From positions 682,001 through 746,000 of the forward strand of contig OZ287082.1 of NCBI GenBank assembly GCA_965645245.1: a stretch of 64,000 nt of DNA. The letters run 5' to 3'. The DNA comes from Massalongia carnosa. Taxonomy: Eukaryota. Positions 15,277-46,329 of the stretch are shown piece by piece (the first letter of the stretch is position 1; every line of letters starts with the position of its first letter). The notes beneath the pieces were generated by a model, which ran no database searches, was not told the origin of the DNA, and worked only from the letters and a program-made list of their open reading frames with translations. The position numbers and the translations under genes were made by a program.

Positions 15277-15315
15277 GTTGGTGATGCACCAGGTGAATAG
15301 GCAGGTTGAACGTAG

Positions 15316-17762: not shown

Positions 17763-17973
17763 TGTAAGAACCACTATCCAGGGAAGACGAATAGTAGTCA
17801 GCTACCTAAGAGACTAAGCATGAAGAAGAGAAATCTATCTACAAAGAAGAATGTGAAATCTATATGCCCCGTTTGCCCTTCTCGAAGTTTCCATCCGGCT
17901 CTAGAAGCTTATCTCCGAAGCTTCGATCGGAAAGAGCCGTTGGATTTAGCGCTCCCACACCCGAGTCCTGACA
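17763..17973. mobile_element. Solo LTR, 211 bp
   Basis: TGTAAG...CTGACA, TSD ACATG. Confidence 0.9.
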
Positions 17974-20900: not shown

Positions 20901-20982
20901 GTGAATTCCACCTCCCAGCTGTCAGTGTCTATTAGGTCGTTGACATAAAAGCACACTCTGGTGTCACCTCCTGGGCGGTATA

Positions 20983-21466
20983 TGAAACGGGAAGACCTTC
21001 TCCCAGCAGGCATTCACTACTGGAAGATGGGATCCACAGGGGCTACACAACGTGATGGTCACAATAGAGGTACAAATAGGTTGGGTCGGGTCAAAGGGTA
21101 GACTAAATGCTACCCTTTTAAAGTGCTTGATCATTGATCTATATAGGATAGGACAATCCATAACCTAAGCTCTTCTTCCATACCTTGCCCATACTACCTG
21201 GTATTTTCGGACTCCGAAATACTTCGGACACCGAAAGACACGGGTAGATAAGACTAGGCAGGTGAGCTAGGGGAGGTGAGGCGAGGCGAGGGGATACTTC
21301 GTGTACTACGAAAACACCTCCATAATAAGTTAAGTCCCCACACTATGCCTAACTGGGTTAGGCGGGACCTTATTGTCTTGGTGGTTGTTTTGGCTGTACG
21401 TATCCCACATAGCCACATAGGCCAGTCTTACGTTCAACGAACGCATACTAGGCCTACCCTATTACA
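20983..21466. mobile_element. Solo LTR, 484 bp
   Basis: TGAAAC...ATTACA, TSD GTATA; the same terminus recurs at 63973. Confidence 0.9.
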
Positions 21467-21651
21467 GTATAGGAGGTGAAAGCCGCTTTGATGAGAACTA
21501 AGCGATGTGGGGGCGGATGGATTGCGCCACGGTTCCTGTATTGCAATAATATCATAGTCCTGGGTGTTTGTGTCTGCTAAGAGGGGTATCATAGTACTCA
21601 CTCTGTTATTTCTGACATTATACTGCAATATAGAGAGGGATTTTGTGTCCC

Positions 21652-23139
21652 TCATAGGATTTCCATCGTTTCGGCCGCTGTGTTCGATGTGACCTGAGTT
21701 CCTGCCGTTAATGCTACGGAATCTGCACGAGGCCTACCCAGCACTGGTTTTGCTAAGGCCTTTACCATATTTTCAGGATTCATGATGCCTATATTAGCCC
21801 AGGTAGGTGCGTCGTCACCCCGATGAGGGCCCGGGGGTGTGCCGGATGAGGGCGTAGCGTTGTGTATTTTTCTTTTCTTGCCGTTTACTATCTTCCACGT
21901 TGACGGAATTTCGTCCGTTTGTGTGACTGTGGGTGTCGACTCTCGTTGAAGTTGAAATTGAAATGAGGGCGGCTGTGATTCGATTGCATAGAGGGGGGCG
22001 CGGTTTTGCATTGCTATTTCAGTTTTTCGCTTTTCAGCTAATCTGACTTTGCATGCTGTGGACCATGCTTCGTGTCCCTTCTCTCCGCATACGGCGCAAC
22101 GGCGGTATTGCCCCGTTGTCTCCAGATTGCATTCTTTGCTTTGATGTCCACCGGAGCAGTGACCACAGGCGGCGGGATTGCGGCATGCTCTACCGATGTG
22201 TCCGTATTTTTGGCAGTTGAAGCATTGAGTCATGGTGCAACCACGTGTGAAGCGCTCGCAGTCTATTATTTCGTAGCTTTCCATTAGCCCCTCGGTGATG
22301 AGCCGGTTAGCCATCTCGGAGGTGGCGACCTCTATATGAAGCGTCGAGTACGCTTTTTTCTCTCTGATAGCCTTGATTGACCAGGCTACTTTGACGATCT
22401 TCAGGTTAGGGTGCAGGCGTGCGTTAGCGGCCTGAAGGTAGGTGATGGCTGTTGATTGATTGGCCACTTTGATGTTTTCCACCCTGATTCCATTCGCTCT
22501 TACGGTGAAGGTGCGGGTGTGCACCGCAGCTGAGGCGGCCACCACGCGGGTCCAATCGGTCTTCTCCTGCAGGGTCTTCTTTGCTTCCAATGACTCTGCG
22601 TGAATCCTGATGTCGCCGTTTAACAAACGCGACACTCCCCTTATTCCTTCAGCTCCATTTTGTAGTGTTTCTACCAAGTCCTTGGTTGGCATTAGCTTCA
22701 TTTTTTCCTTGTCCGCATCCTCCGTGATGTGAACGGTGATTTCCCGGGCACGTCGCGCTTCTCTTGGTATGGGTGCTTTGTCTTTGCGGGCCTGTTGAGG
22801 CTTGACGTTTTGGTTCTTTGGGGGTGCAGGCTCATCTTGGCCTTGCCTTGTGGCAGCAGCGGCATAGCTGCGAGGAGTGGTCTCATTGCGCTCTATACGT
22901 GTCAATGATTGTTGGATTGCCTGTAATCTGTCACCTATATTGTTGGGAGTTTCTGCAACTTTGTCATCGACTAGATTTTGCGCTTGCAAAATTTCCGCTG
23001 AGTTTCTTAGCAACTGCAACGCCTCCGGGTCACCAACGGTGCCCACTCGATCAAGATACTTCTTAATCTTTACGTACAAACATTCCCTCCTTTCCTTGTG
23101 CGCTCTCGAGAGCGCGTTTGTTTGTTCGAGTGTAGTCAT
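21652..23139 (-). CDS. LINE-C ORF1 with three zinc knuckles
   Basis: 495 aa; CFNCQKYGHIGRAC, CGHCSGGHQSKEC, CAVCGEKGHEAWSTAC; ATGA overlap with ORF2. Confidence 0.93.
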   Translation of the reverse strand: MTTLEQTNALSRAHKERRECLYVKIKKYLDRVGTVGDPEALQLLRNSAEILQAQNLVDDKVAETPNNIGDRLQAIQQSLTRIERNETTPRSYAAAATRQGQDEPAPPKNQNVKPQQARKDKAPIPREARRAREITVHITEDADKEKMKLMPTKDLVETLQNGAEGIRGVSRLLNGDIRIHAESLEAKKTLQEKTDWTRVVAASAAVHTRTFTVRANGIRVENIKVANQSTAITYLQAANARLHPNLKIVKVAWSIKAIREKKAYSTLHIEVATSEMANRLITEGLMESYEIIDCERFTRGCTMTQCFNCQKYGHIGRACRNPAACGHCSGGHQSKECNLETTGQYRRCAVCGEKGHEAWSTACKVRLAEKRKTEIAMQNRAPLYAIESQPPSFQFQLQRESTPTVTQTDEIPSTWKIVNGKKRKIHNATPSSGTPPGPHRGDDAPTWANIGIMNPENMVKALAKPVLGRPRADSVALTAGTQVTSNTAAETMEIL

Positions 23140-24650
23140 TTTCGCGACCTACCGTTAAGTTATATCTTATGTTTCACGATTTAAGATATCTTATATAAAT
23201 TATAAGTATTATTGTATATGTTATTATATTATTATATATTAAAAATATAATTTATAATCGTTATAAATCTTTTAAATTATCAAATTCTTATCGTTCGTTC
23301 TCGTTACAGAATATATTTTATAAAAAATATCGATATTAAATTTTTTAATCGAGATTTTTATCGAATTTAAAATTAGTAAAATTTGTTTCGATTCTTGATA
23401 ATAATTTAAATTCTTAAACGATTTGTGACGATTAAATACGAATTATGTAATTATATAACGTTGTAAAGTAATAAATTGTATAATGTACGTGATTTATTAT
23501 AATAAAAATTACAGAAGAATAGAAAAAACAAAAAATAGAATTAACAGTTTGATATAATAAATAAATAAAATAATCTTTGCAGATCTCACGTCTCGTGTAT
23601 CGTATTTCGTGTCTCGTTATTTTGATTTTTTTATGTATATTGTATGTATTCGATATATAGAGTTATGTTACTATATATAACTAATAATATTTTTTAAAAA
23701 AGATAACTTCTTTATATGAAATAATTTCGTTTTCTGATATTTTAATCGAGATTTTCGTTGAAATGATTACAAACAAATCTTGTTTTGTTTCTTGTTTGCA
23801 ATCTAGAAATTTTTGAACGATTGTCGTTTTATTTTTCTAAAACGTTTATTTAATTCTTGTTGAACAATGACAAGAAAATTATTAAAGAAAAACAATATCG
23901 AAAACATATATTAAGTAAATTAATCAATAATTTCTAAAAAAAATAAGCATTAAATTCTTTATTATATAACTTTATCCCGTCTCAGCGATATAAAGAGATT
24001 ATTTTATTTCAATTTATCACAATGCTCGATGATTATAATTAAATTAAACATGTGGAAAGTTATACGTCGATTCAAACTCGACAAAGTCTCGAGTTCGAGT
24101 GAAATAATCAATAGAATTGTAAAGATATGCTTTGAAAAGTTAACCGAATTGATAATTTATTATTTCAAGCATGAGTAAAACAAGCATATCATTTTCGTGC
24201 ATTCAAAACTGTCAATACAATCACGCTAAAAAATAGACAAGAATGATTATTCGATCTCGAACGTTTATCGATTTATAACACTTCTGAACACGCTTGAAAA
24301 AGTATAAAATCTATAATGTTTAAAAAAATCATTTATTTATCGAAAATTTATTGAATCGACACTGGTATTGTAGACTAAACAAATTCAAACAATGTAAGAT
24401 CAGAACAATAACATATTAGTCACATTATTAAACATGAACGTAACAGAAACTTATAATACTGTGAATTATCGAAGAAAAATTCGCAATCTGCGTAAAAGAA
24501 AAATCTCGAAATAAATAACTGATTGAGTAAACAGTTTTCTGAATGAACGAAACATCACTCCGATCATTCACAGTCGAATCACGAGCACATTCGATGTAAA
24601 AATCGAAATCTCATCAGATTCTTTCATTTCTTCGATTTTATATTTATTTT

Positions 24651-25146
24651 TATAAGAGGGACAGTAGATACTAGTCCTTATGGTTTATAATGCTCAGTGT
24701 GACTGCTAATAGATTGGTAGGTGCTAAAGCTAAAAGCTGATTCCCTGAAGATGGGAATCTAGCTTTCTATATACCCCTTGGGGTCCTATTTACTAACTAC
24801 TTGTCTGGTTACCTGTCTGCCTTGTTGCCTTCAGCTGAGGTCTAGTAGATAGCCTTGCTGCCTTCAGCTGAGGTCTAGCAGATAACCTTGTTGCCTTCAG
24901 CTGAGGTCTAGCAGATAGCCTTGTTGCCTTCAGCTGAGGTCTCCTAGGCGTCCCAGGCCTCCCATGAGATCGAGGCTTATCTGAATAGCTTCAGTTGCTG
25001 CCTAACAAACTGGTAAGGCTGATTGCTGATGGCTTAGTATTGCTATCCGCCTTATCATGACTAAGCATCCGGATTATCAGTCACCCGGTCTTCTTGGGTG
25101 AGTCATCCCAGGAGCTAGCGCAGTCCTGTATTGCCGCGCTATTACA
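24651..25146 (-). repeat. Gypsy-2 3' LTR (TG...TA) with four internal 33-bp repeats
   Basis: Direct repeat of 30654-31149; GCCTTGTTGCCTTCAGCTGAGGTCT units at 24819, 24852, 24885, 24918. Confidence 0.96.
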
Positions 25147-25523
25147 ATTACCTCCCTTCTAGTAATGAGCTCCTGCGAAATTCATCCCAGGTAGTTCGTG
25201 CGTTCAGCCCATCATCGCGTGGTAATTGCAAGCGGTTAATCGTGCCGATGGCTTTAACGTCGATGGCCGCTTGAATGCAGGCTAGCAAGAGTTGGGATTT
25301 GTAAGAGCTTGGAAGATATTAGGATAACATAACTTGATGCTCTGGCTCAGCCTCATTAAAAACCTCCCACCTCCCTTCTAGGGAAGGTGCTAGGAAAAGA
25401 GCTACTGGCCTGGATGGAATCGAGCATGACGTTACTGCAACACATTGCTGAGCTCCTAGCGCAGCCTCATTAAAAACCTCCAACCTTTTTTCGTGGGCAG
25501 GTGGTAGGAAAAGAGTGCTGGCC

Positions 25524-28500
25524 TTATTTAGTCCTCTTTGTGCGTCGTCCTGTTTCTTTCGCTAATGAGGGAGTCCTAGTGGCCTGAGGGGTGGACATTG
25601 CTGTTGGCTTGGTAGGATTTTTCTCATGAAATTCCCTCAATAGCTTTCGTAGATGTTTGACGCCGGCGACGGGCTCCCATGTGTCTTCCGCGTCGGGATA
25701 ACCTTTCCAATGCACTAGATAATATAATCCAGCCGGTCGTCCGTCTTCTGCTTCTTTTGCATAGACTGCACTATCTCGTATGCACTCTACTTCATACTCT
25801 TGCATGTCATCGTCTTCGAATTCAAGCTGTTCAGCCATTTGTTCGTCTACTACCTCCCTTCTGGTGGTGTCTCTTTCCAGCAGAGACACATGAAAGACTG
25901 GGTGTATTTTCCAACTTTTCGGAAGTTCTAGCTCGTAAGCTTGAGTGCCTACAGGCCTCAACACCTTAAAGGGACCCAAGAACTTATGTTCAAGCTTCTT
26001 GTTCCTTTTCGTCTTAATATGTTTGCTGTTTAGCAAAACCATATCATCGGGAGCGTAGCAACGTTCTTTCACCGTTCTATTGTGATATTTGGCTTGATTG
26101 TCTTGGGCTAATTGCAGGTTATTTTTCAACTCTGCTAACAAATCGCGTAGATTTTTAGCCTGTTCCTCAGCTGTCTTCGACTTCGATCGAGGGTCTTGGT
26201 TATCTTCATAACTCATCCTTGGGTGGTAGCCTATATTAGCCTCGAACGGGGTGAGCTTGGTGCTTGAATGACGGGTGTTATTGTATGCAAATTCAGCGGT
26301 AGGGAGCCATTGCACCCAGTCATCTTGCTCGAAACGGCAGTAAGACCTAAGGTAAGCTTCCATGGTACTATTTTGACGTTCTGTCTGACCGTCTGTTTGT
26401 GGATGGAAGGCTGTGCTTAGCCTACGCTTTATCTTCATGTAATAGCATAGGGATGACCAGAAGTTTGATGTAAATAGCGAGCCCCGATCGGTGACTATGG
26501 AGTCAGGTAGGCCGTGATACTTGAACACGCAGTGCCTTAGCACTTCAGCTAACTGTTCAGCAGTCAGCGTTTTCTTCACTGCCTCATAGTGCACCATCTT
26601 GGTGAGCCTATCAACGACGACTAGGATGGAGTCATAATCAACTCCCCTCCAGTCCTTACTCTTAGGTAAGCCAGTGACGAAGTCCATCGTAATGTCCTTC
26701 CACTTATGAGTTGGTATAGGCAACGACTGCAAGTTTCCATAAGGCTTATGCCTCGTAGCTTTGCTACTCATGCAGACGTCGCAACCCTCTACATAGCGTG
26801 CTATGTCTGACTTCATCGATGGCCAGTAGTACTTTCTACTCACTAGCTCAATCGTCTTGTCTTTCCCGAAGTGCCCTGCCAGCGGATCATCATGATTTAA
26901 CTCAAGAATTTCTCCTCGTAAGGAGGCTGGGATGTAGGCCTTTCCTTCATGGAATAGACAGTGGTCCGAGTCCGACCATGGCTCGCTGGAGGGCGCCACC
27001 TCCTGTGTCCCCGACACGTCACTGTCTTTCAAGGTAGCTAACCTTTTCCGAACAGTGATAGCGACCTCGTCAACCTGTTGCAACTCAGGAAGACGCTCTA
27101 ATACTCCCCTAGAAGCGGGTTGAGTATAAGGTGACTCGCGCTGTGCGAGAGAGTTTCGCAATGAACTCCAGTATGCCTTCACCTTCGGAACAACCAATGT
27201 TCCGCATGTTATGATCTTCCATATTTCACCGTGGTGAGACCCCGTCGGGCCAGAAGCATCATCTAACGACTCCCCTGACATTGCCCTCATTAGACAAACG
27301 CGTGCGTTCTTATCTACTAGGGATGTCTGCAAAAGGTGGAGCGTTTTGCGGTTTTCAACCAGCACTTCGCCATCATCATCGCCAGCGGTAGGAGGTCTTG
27401 ACAGCCCATCGGCTGGGTTCCTCTTACCCTGACGATAATCGATGCGGAAATTATACCTGGAAAGCTCTTGAGCCCACCTTACTTGCCTGCCGCTTAGGCG
27501 CTTGGTATCCATAAACCTCGTAAGGTTATTGTGATCAGTCAACACGAGACTTTCGTGAGACGACCCCTCAAGGTAATGTCTCCAAATTTTGAAGGCCTCG
27601 ACTATCGCTAATAGTTCAGCATCATGGGTCTCGTAATTACGCTCAGCCAGTAGCATCTTGCGTGAGTAATAGGCAACAGGGTGCCATTGTCCCTCGTCAT
27701 CTTGCTGAGCCAATATGCCGCCAATAGCATAACCTGACGCATCGGTTTCCACGCGTACTGGTTTACTAGCATCGTAATGCCTTAGTACCGGGGCCTCTAT
27801 GAACGACTTTTTCAGCTTCTCAAAAGCCTCTAGAGCTTCCTCCGTAAGGAACTCGCTTTCGACACCATTAGGTGCTTTCTGTCTATGATTAGCGGGCTTT
27901 GTTTTCAGCATAGCGGTAAGTGGCCCTGCTATTTTACTGAACCCACGAATGAATCGTCTATAGAAATTCGCGAAGCCTATGAACACCTGTACATCGCGTA
28001 CGCATGTGGGCCGTGGCCAATTTTGCACTGCTTGGATGCGATCTTTTCGCATATAAACACCTTTAGGATTGATGACATAGCCTAGGAATTCGACTTCGTC
28101 GGTGCTGAATCGGCATTTTTGTAAGTTGCAAAATAAGCCATGCTTGCGGAGTTGTTCTAACACCCATCGCACAGCATCTTCATGGGCCTTACCCTTCTGT
28201 TCGGTATAGATCAGTATATCATCCAAATAAACGATGCAGAAGACATCCAGTTTTAGTGCCAACGCTTTATTGATATAGGCTTGGAAGGAGGCCGGAGCAT
28301 TGGATAATCCGAACGGCATGACGCAGTATTCGAAATGGCCATATCGGGTGCGAAAGGCTGTCTTCCATTCGTCGCCTTTCTTAATTCTGATGCGATTATA
28401 GGCTGCAGTCAAATCCAATTGGGTGTACTGTTTGGCCCGTCCTAGTCGATCTAAAGACTCGCCTACTAATGGTAGCGGGTAGCGATTTTTAACTGTCAGA

Positions 28501-29411
28501 TTGTTCAGACCCCTATAATCCACGCAGAGCCTCAGGGTACCATTTGCCTTAGGCACGAAGAGAATAGGAGCTCCAGCTGGTGAGGTAGATGGCCGGATAA
28601 ACCCATTAGCCAGGTGAGCATCGAGGTAGGCCCTTAGCACTGTGAGCTCTGTTTCTGATAGGCTATAAATAGGTCCATATGGAGGCTGCTTTCCATCCAC
28701 GAGGTCGATCGCATGATCATGTAGCCCGTGCTCTGGTAGCTCGGCTGCACTATCTTCCGAAAAGACATCTGCGAAATCCTTATAAGCCTCAAGGACCTTG
28801 ATTTCTTGTACCTTCACTGAGGCTATTCTAGCTCGACGGCTCGAATGGATGTTATCTACACCTAGCGCCTTAGCATGGACCACGTAGGTCGGTGTATCTT
28901 CTGATAACGCCTCTTCTATGAAGACTTCTGGTTCTATAATCTCTATCCGATGAGTAGTCATCAGGGCCGATTGAACGCTTAGTTCTCGCCAATTCAGGGT
29001 CCTTGCTGACCAATCGATATCGGGATTGGCTAGCTGCAGGAATGGCATGCCCAACACGATATTATGAGGTATATCTGCTATTAGGAATGTTTCCTCAAAG
29101 AAACGTTGCTGACCTAATTGATCAGTTACCCCGAACACCAACAGACCCATGCCATGTGTCATGACTTGCTGGTGATTAATAGCTTCCAAACTGACGCTGG
29201 AGTGTAACACTGTCAGAGCGCATATATTTGCGTAAGCTCTAGAAATAAGGTTAACTTCACTTCCGCTGTCAATTAGTGCTTTTGCTGTTTCTTTAGCGTG
29301 TGTTATTTCGTACTCTATGCAGGGTGCGACTTCCAATGTCTTAGGACTTGCCGATGCCTCTTTGATAGTAGTCGCCGGTAGGGAGGCAGCAGCGGCGACT
29401 ATGCTTTTTTT
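25524..29411 (-). CDS. Gypsy-2 Pol (PR, RT, RNase H, integrase, chromodomain), expressed by -1 frameshift
   Basis: ALIDSGS, YLDD, ETDASG, HDDPLAGH..CDVC, ITMDFV, IVTDRG, GPF, YEVECIRDS..YYLVHWKGYPDAEDTWEP. Confidence 0.96.
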   Translation of the reverse strand, partial: KKSIVAAAASLPATTIKEASASPKTLEVAPCIEYEITHAKETAKALIDSGSEVNLISRAYANICALTVLHSSVSLEAINHQQVMTHGMGLLVFGVTDQLGQQRFFEETFLIADIPHNIVLGMPFLQLANPDIDWSARTLNWRELSVQSALMTTHRIEIIEPEVFIEEALSEDTPTYVVHAKALGVDNIHSSRRARIASVKVQEIKVLEAYKDFADVFSEDSAAELPEHGLHDHAIDLVDGKQPPYGPIYSLSETELTVLRAYLDAHLANGFIRPSTSPAGAPILFVPKANGTLRLCVDYRGLNNLTVKNRYPLPLVGESLDRLGRAKQYTQLDLTAAYNRIRIKKGDEWKTAFRTRYGHFEYCVMPFGLSNAPASFQAYINKALALKLDVFCIVYLDDILIYTEQKGKAHEDAVRWVLEQLRKHGLFCNLQKCRFSTDEVEFLGYVINPKGVYMRKDRIQAVQNWPRPTCVRDVQVFIGFANFYRRFIRGFSKIAGPLTAMLKTKPANHRQKAPNGVESEFLTEEALEAFEKLKKSFIEAPVLRHYDASKPVRVETDASGYAIGGILAQQDDEGQWHPVAYYSRKMLLAERNYETHDAELLAIVEAFKIWRHYLEGSSHESLVLTDHNNLTRFMDTKRLSGRQVRWAQELSRYNFRIDYRQGKRNPADGLSRPPTAGDDDGEVLVENRKTLHLLQTSLVDKNARVCLMRAMSGESLDDASGPTGSHHGEIWKIITCGTLVVPKVKAYWSSLRNSLAQRESPYTQPASRGVLERLPELQQVDEVAITVRKRLATLKDSDVSGTQEVAPSSEPWSDSDHCLFHEGKAYIPASLRGEILELNHDDPLAGHFGKDKTIELVSRKYYWPSMKSDIARYVEGCDVCMSSKATRHKPYGNLQSLPIPTHKWKDITMDFVTGLPKSKDWRGVDYDSILVVVDRLTKMVHYEAVKKTLTAEQLAEVLRHCVFKYHGLPDSIVTDRGSLFTSNFWSSLCYYMKIKRRLSTAFHPQTDGQTERQNSTMEAYLRSYCRFEQDDWVQWLPTAEFAYNNTRHSSTKLTPFEANIGYHPRMSYEDNQDPRSKSKTAEEQAKNLRDLLAELKNNLQLAQDNQAKYHNRTVKERCYAPDDMVLLNSKHIKTKRNKKLEHKFLGPFKVLRPVGTQAYELELPKSWKIHPVFHVSLLERDTTRREVVDEQMAEQLEFEDDDMQEYEVECIRDSAVYAKEAEDGRPAGLYYLVHWKGYPDAEDTWEPVAGVKHLRKLLREFHEKNPTKPTAMSTPQATRTPSLAKETGRRTKRTK

Positions 29412-30553
29412 GGATGGGGACAGTCTTTTACCCAATGTTCGAGGGATCCACAATTATAGCAGCTATTTTTGTTATTGTCTTGTATCTCGGTCACAGTGCC
29501 TAGCGGAATGGCATTGCTATTGGTCGACGGCGCGCTAGTACCAGCCGGAGCCGCATTCCTGCCGCCTCGGCCTCTTCCGCCTCTATTGCCTCTTCCGTGG
29601 TGACTACCTCGATGACCTCTTCCGCCTCGACCTCCGCGATGATTAGTTGGATATGGTTCTCGGCGGCCCTGATCGTTAGAAGCCGGGGCACCTTGCTCCC
29701 GCTTGGAGTAGCCTCTACCTGTTGATGATGGCAAAACAGCCGCTCCCTCAGCTAGTTGTGCATCACTGATGAATTCCGCTATGGTAGCGGGATGTCGATG
29801 ACCTAGTGCTAAGGAATTCCGAATTATTGGTATGACTCCCGTACGAAGCTTCTGGACCATCTGTTCTTCGGTAATAGGATGTTCCGGATCTGCATCGGCT
29901 AATATTGTTCGTAGGCGTTGTAAGTAGGCCGCAAAGGATTGAACAGTATCATTGGGACGTTGTTGTGCATGATGGTACTGCATCCAGGTTCGATCTTTGA
30001 AAACTTCTGTAGAGCCTAGTTGATTCATGAGGTTATTTTTGAACTCCTTCCAGGTAAGATTCAGATGACCCCCTCGTGATAGTATCTCATGCCAATTGTC
30101 GCTAGGGGTGTCTCGAAGGTAGCTGCCTGCATAGGCTATACGACGATCTTGTTCCGTTTCAGGCATGCCACTAGTGTTAAAGACAGCCTCGCATTGTCTG
30201 GTGAATTCGAACAAGGTCTTATGGTCCTTGCCATAATACGGGTCGGGCGACTTAGCTTTGAGGTTATACCTGACAGATCGTTCCATGGAGCGAGGACGAC
30301 GAGACTCTCTTTCCTCGTGCAGTCGTTCTAATTCCCTTTCATTGGCAGCGAGACGGGTACTTTGCTGAGTCAACAAGGTGGCCTGGGCCTGCATGGCTGC
30401 TGTCTGTTCGGTCAAATGGGCCTGCATGGCTCTAATCTCGTCGATTAGCTGGTTTGGTGGTGTTTGTTCCAGCGTATCGTAGTCCAGTAGGTCATCACCC
30501 TGATTGGACGTGGGATTGGCCGAATTCTGGCCGCTTCGTCCTCGTGTGTTCAT
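29399..30553 (-). CDS. Gypsy-2 Gag
   Basis: 384 aa; SPDPYYG motif, RG-rich tract, CYNCGSLEHWVKDC knuckle. Confidence 0.94.
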   Translation of the reverse strand: MNTRGRSGQNSANPTSNQGDDLLDYDTLEQTPPNQLIDEIRAMQAHLTEQTAAMQAQATLLTQQSTRLAANERELERLHEERESRRPRSMERSVRYNLKAKSPDPYYGKDHKTLFEFTRQCEAVFNTSGMPETEQDRRIAYAGSYLRDTPSDNWHEILSRGGHLNLTWKEFKNNLMNQLGSTEVFKDRTWMQYHHAQQRPNDTVQSFAAYLQRLRTILADADPEHPITEEQMVQKLRTGVIPIIRNSLALGHRHPATIAEFISDAQLAEGAAVLPSSTGRGYSKREQGAPASNDQGRREPYPTNHRGGRGGRGHRGSHHGRGNRGGRGRGGRNAAPAGTSAPSTNSNAIPLGTVTEIQDNNKNSCYNCGSLEHWVKDCPHPKKA

Positions 30554-30653
30554 GTTGACGATAAATAGTTTGAATTGTTTGGACGGTAGGTGTGATAGGA
30601 TTGAACTATCAACAGTCGGACCAAGCTATCCTAAGATATGGAGCTTTTAGAAT

Positions 30654-31149
30654 TATAAGAGGGACAGTAGATACTAGTCCTTATGGGTTATAATGCTCAG
30701 TGTGACTGCTAATAGATTGGTAGGTGCTAAAGCTAAAAGCTGATTCCCTGAAGATGGGAATCGAGCTTTCTATATACCCCTTGGGGTCCTATTTACTAAC
30801 TACTTGTCTGGTTACCTGTCTGCCTTGTTGCCTTCAGCTGAGGTCTAGTAGATAGCCTTGCTGCCTTCAGCTGAGGTCTAGCAGATAACCTTGTTGCCTT
30901 CAGCTGAGGTCTAGCAGATAGCCTTGTTGCCTTCAGCTGAGGTCTCCTAGGCGTCCCAGGCCTCCCATGAGATCGAGGCTTATCTGAATAGCTTCAGTTG
31001 CTGCCTAACAAACTGGTAAGGCTGATTGCTGATGGCTTAGTATTGCTATCCGCCTTATCATGACTAAGCATCCGGATTATCAGTCACCCGGTCTTCTTGG
31101 GTGAGTCATCCCAGGAGCTAGCGCAGTCCTGTATTGCCGCGCTATTACA
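30654..31149 (-). repeat. Gypsy-2 5' LTR
   Basis: Direct repeat of 24651-25146; TATATA at 30771-30776. Confidence 0.96.
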
Positions 31150-31945
31150 ATTTTATAAAGCAGATTTATTAAACATATATGAAAAATCGAGCACAAACAC
31201 GAGTGCTTTAGATTTCGTAAACAACATCAATATGTTAACATACGAAAAAAGCATCGAGAAAAATTGCAAGACGTTGAAGAAAATTCACAAAAAATGTGAA
31301 AAATGAGTCATTCGTCATGATTCAATATTTGTCTCGAAGGAATACGAATTGATTCGTTTGTCTAAAAATTCGAAGAAATTCAACATGTTTATTATCATTC
31401 GATAGAAAATAACATCATAAAATCAAAGACGAACATCAGAATTCTGGAAACTTTAAATCGATTCAAAGCTGAAATAAGGTTCACACAAAAGAAAAATTCG
31501 GAAGAAAATTACAAAACAATGCAGAACATTGACAGAAATATTTATCTTTACATGAAACGTCACTTTTTCAATAACACGTCAGATATATACTACGTCGTAG
31601 TTCGATCGATCATGACGTACGACTTTATCATATTACACATATTAAAAGAAATTCAAAAATCAAACGTTATATCGAACAAATTAATCGTTATACAAAACAA
31701 ATGTTTTCGAAACATAATCGAAGTCTTTAAAATAACGCTTATAGAAATTCTAAAAGCAGAGACATTTATAATCTCAATTGACTTCATTTAAATCAATTAC
31801 AAATCGAGATCAAACAACGTCTGGGTCGAAGTGATCATAAGAATTTCATCATAAATGCATGCATCAAAATAATCAATAAACTTCGAGATCGAACAGAACG
31901 TAAGCGAGTCTTAATAATTTTTTCAGAAACGCGAAAACACGTTTG

Positions 31946-32134
31946 TGTGACGGAGCGAGATAGAGAATAGGTTTTCTACCATTGCGCCACCTGGCCTTCC
32001 AGCCACCGCCAGCCACGCGGACCAAAAGGCACAATACTTAGTCCCGCGACTAAGTCCTATTCTACTATAACTGATGTCCACGCTATGTTCGCTTTACGTG
32101 CTGCCATCCGACCGTTCATGGTCGAACCGTGACA
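31946..32134. mobile_element. Short solo LTR, 189 bp, inside LINE-D
   Basis: TGTGACGG...CCGTGACA, TSD GTTTG; inverted relative of 62514-62684. Confidence 0.9.
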
Positions 32135-32944
32135 GTTTGAATCAAGAAAATCACATGAAGAACATTTAACGTTTCAACTTCGACATCAAATTTATCATAA
32201 GTCAAAATCTTCTCAAATGTCGCTCGTGATCTTGAGAAGACTCGCATCGCTCATAACAAAACCATCATTTTAATCAAAAACAACATATAACGCATGACAA
32301 ATCTCATAAAGATTATCTCAGAAACGTATACTCGTTTTTATCTCGATTCAAGTAAATTTATTAATCAAAAAACGCATTATTTTGCATAAAATTCCAATTA
32401 AAGCAGAAAGCGCGTTAGTCATTCAGATACGCTCAGAAAAGATAGATCTGATCGTCTTTCTACATAGACGTCGAGTTTCAGACGTCTCGTTCTCGTATTG
32501 CTTATGTGAATAACACAAACAGATAACAAAACATGTAATCATGTTTTGCAAATTTAACGACAATAGACAAATTGTATTAAACTCGATAAAAACAAACAAC
32601 TATCGATTAATAATTGAATTATTTAAATCGATGAAACTAGTCATCGCGTGATTAATGAAGATCGACTTGTTATCACAATTTTCGCTGACAACACAACATT
32701 TATATCATTGACAGTAATCATTTTTTGATTTACTTTTCATTACTCGTCATAGATCAATTGTTCTCATATAAAGCATACGATCGAGACTAGAAAAGTCTTC
32801 GACTGAATGCAAAATTTCATGATTTTTCTTTCTCAAAAGACTTTTCATATATTATACAACCAAATAAACTCGCTCGCATGAGTCGATCTTCGATCGATAT
32901 CAAATCGAAATTAGAATTATCATTATTATCATCATCATCATCAT

Positions 32945-34110
32945 AATGTTTTTTATGTTACTTATTTTTCAAATTTTCAAAATTTAAAGTTTGAAGTTTT
33001 TATAACCATAAATATTGTTTTCATGAATAACTTAATTATATAATGATAATTTTTCATAAATTTTAAATATTTGACATATTTAGAGTAAATCGCCTATTTA
33101 ACATATATATTATGTCTTATGTTATCGATTTTTCAATTTTTACATTTTCGATATTGATGAATTTTTAAAAAATAGATATTATTTTGTTTAATATCTTCTT
33201 TGTATCATGTGCGATTTTTAAATTTCTTGAAGATATGATTTAAGACTCTGATCTTATTACGTAATTTAACGTATAAAATGTTTTTTACGTTACTTTTTTT
33301 TAAAGTTTCAAATATTGAAGTTCGAGGTTTTTGTATAATTTAATATTGTTTTCATCAACAACTTTGTCAATTCAAGTTCGGTTTTCAAAATTTCTGAATA
33401 TATGACTTTTTCAATAAAAAATGTATATTTAATACATATATTGTTTTTTATGTTATCAACTTTTCAATATTTTTATTTTGATATTGTTAAATTTCTAAGT
33501 AATCAATACTCTTTTCATGAATAACTTTATCAAATCACGTGATGCTTACAAATTTCTTGAACATTTAAGATTTTGATTAAAATATGCGTATTTAATATAT
33601 ATAACGTTTTCTCCGTTACTTAGTTTTCAAAATTTCAATTTTTAAAGTTCGAGACTTTTGTATCAATTGTCATTGTTTTCATGAATAACTTCTTCAAATC
33701 AAGTCGGATTTTCAAAATTCTTGAATATTTAATCTGTTCAGTAAAATATGCATCTTCAACATATATAATGTTATTTACGTTATCAGTTTTTCAATGTTTT
33801 TTATTTTGATATTGTTGAATTTCTAAAAAATCGATACTTTTTTCATAAATAACTTTATCAAATCACGTGATATGTTCAAATTTCTTGAAGATTTAAGATT
33901 TCGATTCAATTTTGCGTATTTAACATATATAATGTTTATTGCGTTACTCACGTTTCAAAATTTCAATTTTTGAAGTTCGAGGTTTTTCTGTTAATTGATA
34001 TTGTTTTCATGAATAACTTCATCAAATCAAGTCGGATTCTCAGAATTCTTGAATATTTATGTACTGCATGCAGTTAACTATGTTTCATATATAAAAAGTT
34101 TCTTACGTTA
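32945..34110. repeat. AT-rich satellite-like array, ~164-bp monomers in ~328-bp dimers
   Basis: TTCATGAATAACT-like anchor at about 33020, 33351, 33514, 33678, 33842, 34006; AAGTTCGAG at 33318, 33645, 33973. Confidence 0.8.
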
Positions 34111-34172
34111 CTGATTCAAGAAAATCATATTGAGAAATCAAAAAAAACACTTCCACTTCCCATTCGGCTGAG

Positions 34173-36476: not shown

Positions 36477-37800
36477 TCACGACGCCTTAGTAAATCTCCG
36501 TTTCATCATGTTCATGAGTCGGTCGAGTTTATCGTCTCGTTGTTTGAGTTGTTCTTTTAGCTCATCTATTGCTAGTCTGCTCTCTTCTCTTTCTTGCTCC
36601 CTCTTCTGATCAAGTTTATCGTTTTGATGTTTGACTTGTTCCTTCAGCTCATCTTTTTCCTGCTTCTGCTGAGCGAGTTGCTGTTTAAGCATGACAGCTA
36701 TTGTCAGTCTTGATCTTTTAATCTTCAGTGTCATAAAATGAAGAAGCGCTTGATATCGTTTCCTGTGAGTTAAGTGGCTCGGATTCTTTTTCGATGTAAT
36801 AGATGTGAACGATTCGTGAAGTGGGAAACTGAAGTTTATATCAGCGGGAATCTTGTCCATAGTCGAAAATATTCTTTTGAGATGGATCGACATTCAAAAG
36901 TCGTAGACATTCTTTGTGAACTTGTAGGCCGTTCAATTGACTCTTACGTCTTGTTTTGTGAAATCAAATTTACGAATAGGATGACGATAAAAGGTTGTAT
37001 CGCTTTCATTGATCAAAGCGTTCATTATCATGTGTGATCGAAAAAGCAAGGATCTCTCGATCAAGCTCTCTCTCACGTTTCACATACTTGAAGAGTTCGA
37101 CGATACCTCTTACCCCAATAGTCATACTATGAGCATTCTGTCGATCCGCGACTTTCAGCGTCACGGCACCACACTTGACTTCGCATGTTAAGATCAGAAA
37201 GTACATGTAATAGATAATCATGAAAAACGAAGTATCATAAAGATCATCAACGAAAAACTCGAGCTTTTTAAGTTGATCGTCTGTGAACGCAGATCGCCTG
37301 AACTCTACAAAACAGTCGGACTGTGAGCGAGTGATAGTGACAGAAATGAAATTGTTTCAGCCTTCATTAGTGCTTTCAATCAAGCACAAAAGATGATAGC
37401 ATCTTGTGTAGCTAGCATTTCTGCGAAGAGAACGATCAAGAGTGAAATATCTCGAATGACTCTGATCTCGTTTCTGCTTTCTATGTTTCGACAGGTTGAT
37501 TTAAAAATATCGTCACAAAATAACGAATCTCTAGGAACTGTCTGCTCTGTGGTAAGCAGGTTTTGATAGCCGCTTTTGCTTTTGTCCGTGATTCTCAAAT
37601 CAGACTCGTTCATGAAGCTATCTTTAGTTTCAAGCACAATTTTATAGCGCGGGTTTTTGTATGAATCACTCTTCTCCTTCCTTGACCTTTGATCGCTAGG
37701 TGTAACATCACTAGAGTCTGATTGTCTACGGCGAAGAGATGATGTAGACTTCTTCTTTGCAAGTAGATGGCTCATGTTGTTCTCTTGTTCGAACTAGAGC
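36477..37800 (-). pseudogene. Decayed conserved fungal hypothetical protein with a nuclease-like ExK motif (recalled as DUF7924-like, unverified)
   Basis: LTCEVKCG..ADRQNAHSMT..GIVELF..ILAFSITHD and YKFTKNVYD motifs across fragments; stops and frameshifts; 5' end lost at about 37800. Confidence 0.65.
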
Positions 37801-38499
37801 TTTCTGAATATTTTTTATTGCATTTATGAATAAATTGGGCACGAACAGGACTATAGGCCTGCCAGGACCTAGGTACAGGACTTCTGTTCATTTGTGCTGC
37901 CCATGTGGCAGGAGGAGCCTTTCTAGGAGCTAAGGGGGCGTTCCCTAGGTGGAGAGGCCGTAAGAGGCGCTCTCAGGCATGGGTATGGCCATTGCATGGT
38001 CTGGCTGGCCTTTCTGCCCAAAGAGTGCCTAAAGTTGTTGGTTTAGTATGGCTTGTGTTAGGGGTTTGATTGACCGGAGACCATGTGGGACGTAGAATAA
38101 GGCTCTTCTCGATGTACTCTTGGTACTGCCAATGGAATGCCCTTTTGAAAGCTGAGGTTCAAGTTGAATATGATTTCTGACTTAGTATTAAAATGTAGCC
38201 TAAATGCATTGAATATCCAAAGGCCTAGTCTTTGTATGCTTTCATCGAGTTATCTGTGATCCGCGGCGTGCTGTGCCGCGCCTTTTCTGAAGCTGTGACC
38301 TGAATACGCCGTTTCTAATAGACCCATGTGGGCTATACGCTTTTCGGAATTGACATGACGTTTTGACGAGAAAATACGTTGTCAGATAGTCTGAACAAGG
38401 ATGTATTTGATGATTTGAGGTCTAGAGACAGTAGCTTCTAAGTGCTGTGACTGGGCAAGTTTCCTCATTCGTGGCAGCAATTGCTACATTTTAGACGAA

Positions 38500-40450
38500 G
38501 GGTTGCAATCTGATATGCCCTGAGAAGGATAAATCGGATCTAATGACGTGTGTCTGACTGAATGAGGTCTTGAAATTTCTGCATCTAAGTAGATTATTTC
38601 TTCGAATCTCATAAAGCCGACTTAGGCCACCTTGAAAGCTGTGTTGATATTGAGATCATTCACTGTTATAGGACTCTCCTTTGTGATTTTTTCCAGAATG
38701 TCTTTCGTGAGTCGTAGGCGATTTCTTTTGCTGGGAAAAAGCCTAGCCTAGCTGCCTGAGAGCAGAAAGATAAAAAGCCTTCGAGTGACTGAATGTCTCA
38801 AAATTTGACGAAGGCTTCTGCTAGAATTTTTGCGATAGTCGTCTTGACCCTCTTCAGCTTTTCGCGTGATAATCTAGATATAAGGTCTGAAATCTTCACC
38901 TCGATTCCGAATATCGAAATGCTGTGCCTTGACCGTCTTTTGACTCGTTATGAAAGATGCCTAGAAGATTCGTGAGCGATATGTATGCCTCATTGTTGTG
39001 TTTCATTCTTGATGAGGTGGCTTCGTGTTTCGAGAAAATTGCAATGAAATCGTCTAGGTAGTGGCGCAGATTCTGTTCAAGAAATGACTTCAGCAGTCAG
39101 TAAAGGCCTTCGCCAACTAAATTGAATATGAATGAAGCTGTGGCCAGGTCGAAGAAAAGGCACGTTTCTTGATAGTACTTGCCCTTTCACTCGAAACTGA
39201 GTAGCCAGCGATGCTGTGATGAGACCGAGACGTTTCGAAACGCATCTTGAAATGTCGCGTATCTAAGCTCCCCCGCTTCGTCAGGGATGTGATCATTTAT
39301 TGATTGATCAGAAGGATAAGATAATGATGAACGCGGTGCCAGTAGTCATCGTGTTAGGTATCAAACCCATTTGCGATAAAATGAATGAAGGCGCTAGTTC
39401 TACCTCGATCATCCTTCCGCGGGTAAGATCTTTCATCAACTTCTTATCGATTATGTCTGAGCATTACGCTACAGATGCGAAATTTTTGAAAAATGAATTC
39501 GTTTTGAGGGTCCTTTTATCCCAGCTTAACTTCAAATAGCAGTGTCATTGACAGATTTATTCGCAATGAATGATTGCGAAGTAATTCCGACCATGCTGCA
39601 GGAATCAGTGATGAAGATGTGTTTGCTAGCGGTGATTGAAAAGTGTCTACGAGACGGAATTTGACAATGATATATTGTGTCTTTGCAGACGCAGAAATGC
39701 GTAAGAAGAAGAAAACATATTCCTGCTCAAGCCGTTATGACTTCTTCTTGCAATTCACTACCTCGTGGTCCTTAGAGCCATAACCCTCGCATATATGAGC
39801 CCGTTTGCACAGAGGGCTGATTCGCGACGATACGAGTGCGAATCTCGATTGTCATTGAGAGCAACGCCTCTCATCACTGATACACCTTGAAAAGATGCAA
39901 GATGATGATATAGAAATGTGTAAGAAAGGCATGCAATGTTGATGCCTCTAGACCGAAGGATATCAGAATGACAATGTAATGAATGAAGGCCTCCTTCCAT
40001 ACGTCGTGTACGATCTTTCCGAAATCCTTGTACGACTCAATCGTTCTTTGTAACCTGAGCATGCCGTCTTCTTTGTCGATTCGCTCGTTGTCTTGCATGA
40101 TCTCATATCGAATGCCTCGCATGTGGCGAGACGATAGAGGTTGATCGATTTGAACTTATTGTGAAAGATACGAACGATTTCTTCCTAAGTTAGGTCGGCA
40201 AAGCAAAGATTAATTGTTCTCACTTCGCGAGGAATCTCATCTGTGATGTCGTCGTCATCTTCGTTGATTTGAAACCTTCCCGCCGGCCCTGTAGCGGAAG
40301 CTGAGATCGTGACGGCGAAGGCGAGGACGATGCGTGCTGCTGATTCTAATTCCATGCATTTCAACTTCATTGCCGCTTTCGTGGCAGCGGCATTCCTTTC
40401 TTCTTCTGCTTTCTGTCGTGCAATCTCAATAGCTGCTCAGAATGCTCCTG
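38500..40450 (-). mobile_element. Ngaro/DIRS-type tyrosine-recombinase retrotransposon relic
   Basis: gag-like 39874-40122; RT relic ETCLFFDLATASFIFN..RHYLDDFI (about 39040-39170); YR relic KRNRLRLTKDILEKIT..NINTAFKVA*VGFMRFEEIIY (about 38590-38730); boundaries approximate. Confidence 0.75.
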
Positions 40451-41080
40451 GATATCTCAGATAAAACCTGTCCATCGAAAGTAGTGACTTGGCTACGAGG
40501 GGCCATTGTGTAAATTTAGTTGACGATGTGTCGAGAATAATGTGAATGAATGTACGGGTTTTACGACCAAAAGCGAGGAAGCAGGCTAGAAGAGCTGACT
40601 AGTAAAGGCACTGGATGCTGTAGATGTGCAAATGATGAACGAGATGAAGAATGGATGATGCAGGATGGATGCAAAGGCCTATCAGTTCAGAAGAATGATG
40701 ATGAGAAACTGAAAGAAGAGGAGAGCACAATGTGTGCGTTTTGTTCTTCGTCGCTTATTTCTTAGTCATCCCCCATGTGATAGTAGGCCATTCTCACGTG
40801 CATAGAACCCATCTATCTTTATGAAGGCATGCTTTCAAAATTAAACTCGAGAAAGGTAAGATGACCAGATACATGTCCCAAGCAGATAAAGTTCCCGTAA
40901 CTAGCTGAACACATCGGTCGATAGTCGGATGCAAGCCAAAGAAAACGTTGTTCTTTAAAAGCTATCCATTGATCTTCAACAAACACAGAACATAGCTCTT
41001 TTTTCTGACGGAAAGGAGCACTATGAAGAGATAAAGGAATGGAGATTTGCCCTCTATCAGTCTTTAGATGTGAACCATCT

Positions 41081-41399
41081 GGCGAGAAGGCTACAGCCCT
41101 GATCCAGCCCGAGTGACCCTCGAGCGTGCTGCGGCAAGACCCTGTACCTGCGTCCCAGAGCCGGATCGTCTTGTCGTCCGAGGCAGACGCTATCAGCTGG
41201 CCGTCCGGCGAGAAGGCTACAGCGTTGACCCAGTCCGAGTGACCCTCGAGCGTGCTGCGGCAAGACCCTGTACCTGCGTCCCAGAGCCGGATCGTCTTGT
41301 CGTCCGAGGCAGACGCTATCAGCTGGCCGTCCGGCGAGAAGGCTACAGCGTTGACCCAGTCCGAGTGACCCTCGAGCGTGCTGCGGCAAGACCCTGTAC
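41081..41399. repeat. 126-bp tandem repeat, about 2.5 copies
   Basis: GGCGAGAAGGCTACAGC at 41081, 41207, 41333; copies identical from 41109 onward. Confidence 0.95.
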
Positions 41400-42295
41400 A
41401 GCAAGAATGTATGGCCTAGATGGCTTGGAACTATTAGTAAAGAGTAATATTGAGAGTTTTGAAGAGGAGATATCAATATTTTGTTTGCTAGACATTGCAG
41501 AAGAAGCTTATCAGAAGCTTTCCGATGACGAAATATGGTTCACGGATTATCTCACAAAGGAGTTGAAGGCTGCGTTCAAGACGAAGGAGACTCTATTTTC
41601 AAGACAATGTTTCTTGAATCGCATTGGGAAGGTTAAAATCTTGATAAAGCTTTGGTGAAAAGCATAGTGAAGATATACACGAACAAGACTGCAAGCACGG
41701 CCAACAAAGAGGAAAGTAGGTTTGAAGAAGCTACCTGCGGAGCTCCCTGCGAAGAAATACCTCCGCCTGTCTGTTCTGTCGAGCCTATCTGCTGCGAAGA
41801 GACTACCCCGCCCACCCACTACGACAAGCCTACCAGCTACGAAGAAGTTTCATACAGAGCGGTTCTCTGTGGGGAAGCTTCCCGTGAAGAAGTTGCTGAA
41901 GTGGTCATGAAAGATAAAACTTTTCTAGTAAAAGGGGAGCCATTTCTGCTCGAAAAGCCTACAGAGGATACATACGTAAGGACTAAGAAAGGGAGGAAAG
42001 AGAAGAGTAAGAACAGCAAGGCGAAACGCTTTCAGGACGCCGCTGAATCTGTCCCCGAGCCTGCTGTCCGGCCTAAATAGAGCACAAGCTTACTCTCGAA
42101 CCTGAGCCAACGCTTAAGCCAGACATTGAGGAGAATAGTGTATGCATCTTCCGAGCTAAGCACCTGCTAGAAGGATATCTATGGAAGAACTGCAAGAAGT
42201 GCTGGGCTGTCATACGCCAAGTATCCCTTCAACTTGCGCGCGAGAGAAGTGCTGACGAGGTGGAATATGAGATTGTCGACAGGATTTTGGTGAGC
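41400..42295 (+). pseudogene. Fragment of a fungal hypothetical protein (helical region resembling that downstream of BTB domains)
   Basis: [42 protein letters not shown]; frameshift near 41650; N-terminus missing. Confidence 0.4.
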
Positions 42296-44245: not shown

Positions 44246-45203
44246 ATTTCATTGAGGGCGCAATTGGGCGGCATCAGAATTAAAAGTACTTAGAAACTAG
44301 GTTACGAGCAGCTAACCGCGGTGGTTAGTGAAGGGGAAAGCTTCGAAACAATGTACCAAATCGCAGTAGACTAAAGTTGTTGAGACGTCTCAATAAAGTG
44401 GCACCTCGTCGAACTATTAAAACGTCTCGATTAACTAAAAGTCGCGAGACTAAAAGTCGCGGAGAAGAATGACACCACTCGATTTGTATATGGAATAACC
44501 TTATTCCTGGACCCCTGTTTGGTGCTTAACGTATTGTCGGCGATGATTGTAGTGGTGTTGATCGTCGTCGTGTACTGGCTTTCGCACTCTATTCCGCGGT
44601 TTCCGTCGGACTGTTTGTGTCCGATCGTCTTCTATCAATGCCATGTAGTAAATCAATGAAAGTATGTAATTGACGACGGACTAACATCCTCAAAGAACAT
44701 TGTGGTCCTGTTTAATACTAATACCTAGTCTCGTCTTTTTCTGACTCATTTCCTGATCAAGAATCTTCAAACCAACTATTAGTTAGTATGTACGGAATGA
44801 CCTATGTTATGTTGCATCATGATCAACACTTATTATAAGCGCTGCTTAGTCTAGTGAACTTTAATGTCTCCCTTCAGATTTTCTCCCCTGAATACCCCAC
44901 CCCAATTCCGCCCCCTCAAATGACTCTAGGGCCCGACCGAACCACGACTTCACCACGGGTAGAGGTATGCATGCAATGTTTCCCAGTAGACCAAGCAAGT
45001 CATTCCAACAAGTTCGGCTGTTGATCGAATTGCAGATAGGCTTGACTCTATCCGGGAACTGTGCCATTGCTATGTTATGGGTTATTGGAAACAAGGCTCT
45101 TGCCTTCCAATAGCTACCCTGGCTTCTGTGAACGATCTCTGGCAAAGGTCTTGGGATGTCAACAACATAGTCCAGAAGCTGTAACAGTGCGTTAGAGGCA
45201 CTA

Positions 45204-45493
45204 TGTCATGGAGTGACTGGGCACCTGCCAGAGCTAAGCTTAATCCGGATCAGTTAGGGCAACGGTAGGTGTTCCGGCCGTCAATAATGTCATGGCGATA
45301 GTGCCATGTCAGGGACTTGGGGGAAATTGGATCAACAGCTGGATTGGGACTAGTTCAGTTCGCCAGAGTCTTATACTCGCCCACGTTTGATTTTCTGATT
45401 CATTTCTCCTTGTCGAACGTCTTGTCCAATTAGCTAGACATCAAGTAATACGTTTGCACCACCTGAATTCCTATCTGACCTCGCACCGTGACA
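45204..45493 (+). mobile_element. Solo LTR of the Gypsy-1 family, 290 bp
   Basis: Reverse complement of the Gypsy-1 LTR with an internal deletion; TSD CACTA. Confidence 0.93.
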
Positions 45494-46329
45494 CACTAGA
45501 CTGAACCCCACTTGCTAATTTCCAAATGAATGTCCAAAGCATGGTAACTAAGAAAGAACGGCTGTCTTCAATGGCAAAGTGTCCATTGAGAAAGCAATCC
45601 AGATCCTTTAAGCTTTCCCTTGGAGTTGAGTCTGTTGGCTGAAATCCCTGCCTGATAGTAGAAATCAACAGCAATGCAGCCAAGTTCAATACAAGCTCAT
45701 GAAATAGTAAAGGACCTTGAAGACATGCGAGCAGCTGACGGTACATATTCAAACTTTCTTCTGATTTGACCCAGTGGTGTAGCATCCTGGTAGTCCTTTC
45801 GCCAGTACACGTACAGCATAGTACAAAATCAGGGATCCATGATTCTCCGCGTTTCGAAAACTTGGGAATTGTTATCGATAGAACGCTCTATTTTAGTTTA
45901 GGGTCGACTCGTCAATTCAAGTCCTTTCAATTACTTACATAGTAACGTGGACTGTACTGCTATCCTCGAAACCCAGGTGCTGCAAGATTTTATGCAAGGA
46001 TGGCGAGAGCTCCTACTTAGGTTAGTGCTTGTCAGATACAGAGACTCTCGATCTGCTCACCAGGTTTTTTGGTGGATAATCGATTGGCAAATGTAGACTC
46101 AGCTTTGCCCTCCATTCCTGCATTGACTTAGGGCCTATGATACTAGATTCCTTGAAAAGCTTAGACAACAAGATATCTCGGCCGACTTTTGTCCAATCGA
46201 GCGTTCCGAAAGGGTTCAAGTGATTGGTAGGAACCCGAAAAGCTTAACAAATCAGGTCGAGGTTTTGCAATTGCAAGAATTCAGTAGATATCTGGCTGCG
46301 ACCTATGAATCGAGATATGGATCGGTTAT

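Follow-up and report, generated by a model that had tools for sequence, protein, structure and literature searches.

This report concerns AT-rich repeat relics, the main one a degenerate Tad-like long interspersed nuclear element (LINE) that we call LINE-D, in one 64-kb stretch of Massalongia carnosa contig OZ287082.1, referred to below as the window. We find that these relics have probably been hypermutated by a C-to-T process resembling repeat-induced point mutation (RIP), with the order of targets CpC > CpT > CpA > CpG, and we put the probability of this reading at about 65%. Directly observed in the window are the direction of change, the order of contexts and the equality of the strands; the changes are confined to repeat relics, and ordinary divergence lacks the bias. 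A sequence-only reading of the same DNA had proposed RIP-like mutation with a specificity shifted to CpC, sparing CpA and CpG; its RIP-like, directional, two-stranded and relic-confined character stands, and the sparing of CpA does not.

The window consists of nested transposons (LINEs, Gypsy and Copia elements and a hAT fragment) together with a WD40 and a DUF7924 gene (Table 1). LINE-D aligns with the portion of three GC-rich relatives, LINE-A, LINE-B and LINE-C, that extends from the reverse transcriptase to the 3′ end. The second open reading frame (ORF) of LINE-A, ORF2, contains the Exo_endo_phos and RVT_1 domains, the combination of endonuclease and reverse transcriptase by which a Tad1-like LINE is recognized, and its best named relatives are from Pezizomycotina (37–42% identity).

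LINE-B at 15668–16936 and LINE-D at 31482–32944 align in two blocks with 74–76% identity, the 3′ part of LINE-D matching 16359–16936 at 76%. Read from LINE-B to LINE-D, 80 of the 108 differences in the first block and 145 of the 201 in the second are C>T or G>A. Sorted by the base 3′ of the cytosine, the mutated sites in the first block number 41/47 for CpC, 23/46 for CpT, 13/65 for CpA and 3/36 for CpG; in the second block, which covers the 3′ part of LINE-D, they number 71/87, 35/79, 30/101 and 9/82, respectively. The four pairs of snippets quoted in the sequence-only reading lie where it placed them (15776/31593, 15761/31576, 16874/32882 and 16771/32779), and within them no CA/TG or CG is lost, as it stated; overall, about 25–28% of CpA and about 10–13% of CpG sites are mutated. 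Its CpC target is borne out in that CpC ranks first and CpG last, but this is not a pure CpC rule, as CpT, which went unmentioned, comes second with about 47–49% of its sites changed. At positions 16416 and 16427 of LINE-B, other copies have C and A, respectively, in almost every contig from four public runs. The in-frame TAG codon, and one change that looks like G>A in LINE-D, are therefore private to LINE-B.

Polarization with LINE-C as the outgroup assigns to the LINE-D lineage 66 C>T or G>A changes among 80, along with 4 T>C or A>G changes and 10 transversions. The polarized rates follow the same order (CpC 38/42, CpT 17/33, CpA 10/55, CpG 1/25). In the same test the LINE-B lineage has 22 changes without direction. 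Because change is directional in one lineage and not in the other, the AT-rich copy is the derived one. Across the 539 LINE-B/LINE-D sites the effect of the 3′ neighbour is very strong (chi-square = 162.8, P = 4.6 × 10−35) and that of the 5′ neighbour is not significant (chi-square = 7.5, P = 0.057). The two strands are alike, with CpC mutated at 63/75 sites on the plus strand and 49/59 on the minus strand, and CpT at 33/59 and 24/65.

LINE-D also reaches further upstream. Transition-tolerant local alignment (scores of 281–600, compared with 59–75 for shuffled queries) shows that 31153–31481 and 23955–24649 match consecutive stretches of LINE-C and LINE-A. The upstream segment aligns with the reverse complement of LINE-C at 19918–19172 (score 600, shuffles 63–75), and the match continues in LINE-C coordinates from 31153 onward; the middle part of LINE-D aligns with the reverse complements of LINE-C 19172–18846 and LINE-A 5415–5098 and with LINE-B 15668–16092. 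As the two halves are consecutive in LINE-C and LINE-A, the young element Gypsy-2 must have inserted inside LINE-D. At positions of the two upstream segments where LINE-A and LINE-C agree, LINE-D is mutated at 34/47 CpC, 23/42 CpT, 18/61 CpA and 6/32 CpG sites, and the differences comprise 124 C>T or G>A changes (of 191), 19 reverse transitions and 48 transversions. At the other end of the element, the LINE tails at 16900–16936 and 32900–32944 are (ATC)n/(ATT)n microsatellite-like sequences rather than poly(A).

A second repeat family carries the same signature. We compared the AT-rich long terminal repeat (LTR) copy at 3660–3825 with a consensus built by a two-of-three rule from the GC-rich copies at 9768–10122, 45180–45494 (reverse complement) and 49986–50340. 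C>T and G>A account for 41 of the 60 differences (29 and 12, with no T>C, one A>G and 18 transversions), at rates of 19/24 for CpC, 10/19 for CpT, 9/22 for CpA and 3/16 for CpG. Pooling of the three alignments (LINE-B/LINE-D, the upstream LINE-D segments and the LTR copy) gives 165/205 (80%) for CpC, 90/185 (49%) for CpT, 69/248 (28%) for CpA and 21/164 (13%) for CpG (chi-square = 204, P = 5 × 10−44; odds ratio for CpC against CpA of 10.7, P = 3 × 10−30). With rates estimated as −ln(1 − p), CpC : CpT : CpA : CpG is about 12 : 5 : 2.4 : 1. We also considered whether LINE-D might be the offspring of an AT-rich master copy; outgroup polarization and the sharing of the signature by other families rule this out.

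A third locus is the DUF7924 gene, which lies in a zone at about 34.2–41 kb with a GC content of 0.38–0.47. The ratio (CC+GG)/(TC+GA) is 0.13–0.45 in 12 of the 14 500-bp windows of this zone, the exception being 37501–38500 (0.70–0.72), and 0.13–0.21 around the ORF itself (GC 0.38–0.41); we read the zone as a lightly mutated stage. Compared with 117 homologous segments, found by a search of 1.84 billion representatives, the ORF has no proline (homologue mean 5.3) and 3 glycines (mean 6.0), and every conserved proline is gone. The changes at conserved sites are three of P>S (TCT, TCA, TCC), P>F (TTT), P>L (CTG), G>E (GAG), G>D (GAT), T>I (ATC), A>I and S>F. Since proline is always encoded by CCN and glycine by GGN, P>S is necessarily CC>TC and G>D or G>E necessarily GG>GA. 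Three independent loci or families, LINE-D, the LTR copy and the DUF7924 gene, agree. The same zone is bordered by a WD40-rich ORF on the minus strand at 40819–41415 (E = 1.4 × 10−39), with 126-bp tandem units at 41081–41399 that are 97% identical; it looks NLR-like, and such units are typical of fungal NLR-type genes, whose repeats evolve fast.

Ordinary divergence in the window lacks the bias. Between GC-rich solo-LTR copies with 87–91% identity, transitions in each direction are about as frequent as transversions, and CpC shows no excess, with changes at 1–4 of 29–36 sites (for example, 2/36 and 4/34), as in the remaining contexts. LINE-A and LINE-C, which share 65% identity over 2,007 aligned bases, are likewise flat (CpC 31/224, CpA 37/254, CpG 32/214, CpT 49/249). 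The mutated tracts are the LINE relic, the LTR copy and the tandem array next to LINE-D; the families concerned also have unmutated high-copy members. Both insertions in the relic, Gypsy-2 and a 192-bp element at 31943–32134, are unmutated, and the borders are sharp. The LTRs of Gypsy-2 (24650–25149 and 30653–31152) differ at 2 of 500 positions, both transversions. The 192-bp element is 73.6% identical to 62514–62687, a stretch immediately 5′ of the 3′ LTR of the Copia-type element that overlaps this LTR by three bases only. Because these young inserts are untouched, the process either predates them or acts rarely.

Public data were also consulted. Contigs of four runs that align to 10123–23139 (80% likeness) have C>T and G>A variant places in 1.2- to 1.4-fold excess over T>C and A>G (X3 499/413, X2 718/507, X1 850/625, X5 734/558); these are overall tallies and are not taken as support. 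The stretch 31153–34153 is matched in two coded organisms and in public runs that carry the label ‘lichen metagenome’. Scanning of metagenomes with a degenerate LINE pattern of 35 letters produced no match; for the ORF2 protein of LINE-A there were 116 pattern matches, of which none was confirmed.

The composition of the AT-rich DNA follows the same order. In LINE-D and the neighbouring blocks the observed-to-expected ratio (O/E) is 0.08–0.29 for CC/GG, 1.8–4.4 for CpG and 0.56–0.92 for TpA. Examples are 31153–31942 (CC/GG 0.20, CpG 2.26, TpA 0.56), 23124–23954 (CC/GG 0.12, CpG 3.78) and the tandem array at 32945–34153 (CC/GG 0.29, CpG 1.8); at 32501–33000, (CC+GG)/(TC+GA) falls to 0.01. The sequence-only reading had described AT-rich DNA throughout the window as poor in CC/GG and rich in TCGA. 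We found this to be correct: (CC+GG)/(TC+GA) is below 0.5 in 15 of the 17 AT-rich 500-bp windows compared with 23 of the 111 remaining windows, and TCGA occurs 84 times in the AT-rich blocks with 14.6 expected, compared with 131 and 98 in the GC-rich transposons. It had also predicted that indices of the TpA/ApT type would under-call the pattern. The RIPCAL default criteria, TpA/ApT of at least 0.89 with (CpA+TpG)/(ApC+GpT) of at most 1.03 (PMC2621366), indeed detect only 2 of the 17 AT-rich windows and miss 15.

In a forward simulation, we mutated five GC-rich transposons of the window to the GC content of each AT-rich block under four models and scored the root-mean-square (rms) deviation of the dinucleotide spectrum. 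The CpC-type model gave the best fit for all seven blocks, with an rms of 0.50 compared with 1.48 for the Neurospora-type model at 23124–23954 and of 0.31 compared with 1.22 at 32945–34153; the margin is narrow at 9027–9755 (0.59 compared with 0.62 for the uniform model). The Neurospora-type model was worse than even the uniform model in all seven blocks, because it predicts an O/E of about 1.2 for TpA and 0.2–0.5 for CpA, whereas 0.6–0.9 and 0.8–1.3 are observed.

Transitions of one kind at high density, on both strands, controlled by the 3′ neighbour, confined to relics and ending at sharp borders are features of RIP. The AT-rich stretches are relics of repeated DNA (the Tad-like LINE, the LTR copy and the tandem array), and the DUF7924 gene is probably also a repeated sequence. 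We suggest that a RIP-like process has turned cytosines of such relics into thymines on both strands, and that the enzyme would sense the base 3′ of its target, as do Neurospora RIP and enzymes of the C5-methyltransferase type. Control by the 3′ neighbour is expected of a base-flipping C5-methyltransferase-type enzyme, as has been argued for Neurospora (10.1101/344036). The CpC-first order converts CCGG to TCGA, nearly abolishes CC/GG and enriches CpG two- to four-fold; as TpA does not rise, the standard RIP indices stay silent. The trigger would be sequence duplication and the action would fall in the sexual or premeiotic phase, with a homologue of the RID/Masc1 or DIM-2 type of cytosine methyltransferase, altered in target recognition, as the candidate agent. 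The low rate at CpG could also reflect rescue of these sites by mismatch repair of T:G or U:G rather than intrinsic sparing by the enzyme. In favour of a RIP-like process we also count that the host is a Pezizomycotina-type fungus from lichen material and that RIP, together with RID and DIM-2 homologues, is reported for the lichen-forming Cladonia rangiformis (PMC12542154). To the further claim that a lichen-associated ascomycete lineage runs a repeat-directed mutator that intrinsically takes CpC first and CpG last, a near-mirror of Neurospora RIP, we would give about even odds.

Slow decay in heterochromatin is an unlikely, although not negligible, alternative: a DIM-2-type enzyme that prefers CpC and CpT would deposit non-CpG 5-methylcytosine, which would deaminate spontaneously over long times, with no premeiotic burst. 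The observed order of contexts depends on the 3′ neighbour, as it does for methyltransferases; strand-clustered tracts are not seen, and unaffected young insertions suit a purely time-dependent process. However, the polarized LINE-D lineage has accumulated only 14 neutral changes (the transversions and reverse transitions) beside its 66 C>T or G>A changes, so the elapsed neutral time was short relative to the conversion of 80–90% of CpC sites. Slow decay would, moreover, still be a repeat-targeted cytosine modification with an undescribed context.

Editing of LINE complementary DNA (cDNA) at retrotransposition by an AID/APOBEC-like single-strand deaminase, in which case LINE-D arrived already mutated, appears very improbable. 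The main example is a retrotransposon, and the C>T changes inside its CC dinucleotides recall APOBEC3G. That enzyme, however, deaminates the second (3′) C of CC, guided by the base on its 5′ side, and acts on a single cDNA strand, whereas in LINE-D it is the first (5′) C that is mutated, both strands are affected equally at CpC and the base on the 5′ side makes no difference. The tandem array, the flanking AT-rich DNA and the LTR copy also share the signature. Ordinary mutation pressure without repeat targeting, either ultraviolet damage at dipyrimidines or a general AT bias on old neutral DNA, we regard as more improbable still. CpC and CpT, the favoured targets, are dipyrimidines, and lichens are exposed to light. 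Yet a 5′ pyrimidine adds nothing when the 3′ base is a purine (32/148 for YCR and 22/133 for RCR, where Y is a pyrimidine and R a purine), and RCY reaches 93/130; divergence between the GC-rich solo LTRs shows neither an excess of transitions nor a CpC bias, and the pattern stops abruptly at inserted elements.

Several observations weigh against RIP-like hypermutation as the explanation. Strand-clustered tracts did not emerge from a runs test (0.575 and 0.476 runs per mutation, compared with 0.486 and 0.454 in simulations); the signature of a single RIP event is either absent or has been wiped out by saturation. GC-rich, apparently intact, high-copy family members coexist with the relics, so not all repeats are hit now and the process is old, rare or selective. 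The AT-rich block at 54219–56022 is weakly depleted (CC/GG O/E of 0.88), and there the CpC-type model fits only narrowly better than the uniform model (rms of 0.23 compared with 0.25). The support from DUF7924 is at the level of the protein, and its P>L change (CTG) is at odds with a CpC-first path. Finally, a single window carries all of the evidence. The block at 54219–56022 and the stretch at 56506–56875 are AT-rich repeats (GC 0.31–0.35) with 73–87% mutual identity, and they may be older than the LINE-D relic or belong to another kind of AT-rich DNA; repeat pairs that are AT-rich on both sides (54144–56875 and 62954–63972) are uninformative on direction.

Table 1. Elements and genes of the window, with coordinates in the numbering of the 64-kb stretch
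Feature	Position	Strand	Description
LINE-A	4044–9025	−	Intact Tad-like LINE with ORF1 and ORF2; GC-rich; second outgroup
LINE-B	15671–16936 (aligned from 15668)	+	GC-rich reference of the LINE-D subfamily; 3′ 1.27 kb
LINE-C	about 17399–23139	−	GC-rich, sister subfamily; reverse transcriptase and endonuclease domains; outgroup
LINE-D, 5′ part	23955–24649	+	Reverse-transcriptase region; cut off from the remainder by Gypsy-2
LINE-D, middle part	31153–31942	+	Tad-like relic, GC about 0.3; abuts the 3′ LTR of Gypsy-2
LINE-D, 3′ part	32135–32944	+	(ATC)n-type tail at its end; strongest CC depletion
Gypsy-1	9768–15670		Young; 1 LTR difference in 355
Gypsy-2	24650–31152	−	Young, unmutated, inserted into LINE-D; GC 0.48; gag and pol ORFs intact
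Solo-LTR-like insert, 192 bp	31943–32134		GC 0.53, termini TG..CA; within LINE-D, unmutated
AT-rich block	23124–23954		Parent not identified; upstream of LINE-D; GC 0.20
AT-rich tandem array	32945–34153		Period 164/328, 6.8 copies of 164 bp (Tandem Repeats Finder, TRF); abuts the LINE-D tail
AT-rich LTR copy of the Gypsy-1 family	3660–3825	+	Second repeat family with the mutation order of LINE-D
DUF7924 ORF	37006–37356	−	Pfam PF25545, E = 1.8 × 10−41
Copia-type element	56921–62911	−(domains)	RVT_2, SH3_retrovirus and Pol_BBD; LTRs 56921–57147 and 62685–62911, 95% identical

Other features of the window are as follows. LINE-B seems to be 5′-truncated and embedded in older AT-rich DNA at 9027–9737. 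Gypsy-1 sits in LINE-B: the LINE resumes at 9738–9767, upstream of the 5′ LTR, and a CACAC-like duplication is present at both junctions. A fragment of a hAT transposase dimerization domain on the plus strand at 52904–53422 (E = 2.3 × 10−11) is followed at 53547–53736 by a GGA-rich minisatellite with a strong GC skew. No tRNA genes were found in the window.

RIP is usually recognized through its CpA>TpA products. If the RIP-like reading is true, RIP may be missed by index-based tools in some lineages, as it is for most AT-rich windows here, and AT-rich compartments that are rich in CpG and TCGA would escape both TpA-based indices and CpA-centred surveys. Such genomes would retain CpG-rich AT isochores, which is relevant to methylation and heterochromatin. 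CC>TC and CT>TT create no stop codons, so that each mutation yields fewer stops; inactivation would then proceed mainly by missense changes, an example being the total loss of conserved proline from the DUF7924 ORF. A natural variant in specificity would also help with an old question, namely the identity of the enzyme behind the C-to-T step of RIP and the determinants of its context. Whether RID or DIM-2 is the catalytic mutator could be tested in Neurospora by replacing the enzyme, or only the region that recognizes its target, with the counterpart from such a lineage.

The pattern resembles RIP in Neurospora crassa and most Pezizomycotina in that the changes are dense, restricted to C:G>T:A, present on both strands, confined to relics and controlled by the 3′ neighbour, and in that they form sharp-edged AT-rich blocks. 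It differs in that the order of contexts is nearly reversed, without enrichment of TpA, and in that most AT-rich windows go undetected by the default indices. A literature search for CpC-biased RIP, proposed with the sequence-only reading, found no report of a CpC-dominant fungal form, subscription papers and supplementary tables lying outside the search; the only contexts found described were CpA, CpG/TCG and CpT. A 2011 study by Clutterbuck, or supplementary tables, could hold a CpC case. In the passages on which we draw, PMC2621366 and 10.1101/344036 name CpC only as one of four possible contexts. A Cladonia rangiformis paper defines RIP by GC content (PMC12542154) and a Xanthoria preprint by the RIPper tool (10.1101/2025.11.25.690456), with contexts not reported in the passages concerned.

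Neurospora RIP comprises a RID-dependent pathway and a second, DIM-2 pathway, with CpA preferred in both (10.1101/344036), and CpA>TpA is described as predominating in most fungi with RIP (PMC2621366). In the OcculterCut survey, the product that stands out where species have AT-rich regions is TpA (PMC4943192). Context can vary between lineages (PMC2621366, PMC4943192): CpG is affected along with CpA in the MATE elements of Aspergillus nidulans, TpCpG is the context in Microbotryum and in Pucciniomycotina, and CpT accompanies CpA in Magnaporthe. Unlike variants of the CpG/TCG type (Aspergillus, Microbotryum, rusts) or those centred on CpA, the relics studied here show CpG as the least affected context (TCG is mutated at only 7 of 31 sites) and CpC as the most affected. 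A kingdom-wide k-mer survey from 2025, which asked what fungi bear signatures of repeat-directed mutation and covered 1,239 genomes, arrived at a CpA preference common to RIP-like defences (PMC12543289). The window is a counter-example to that generalization, provided that it represents its genome.

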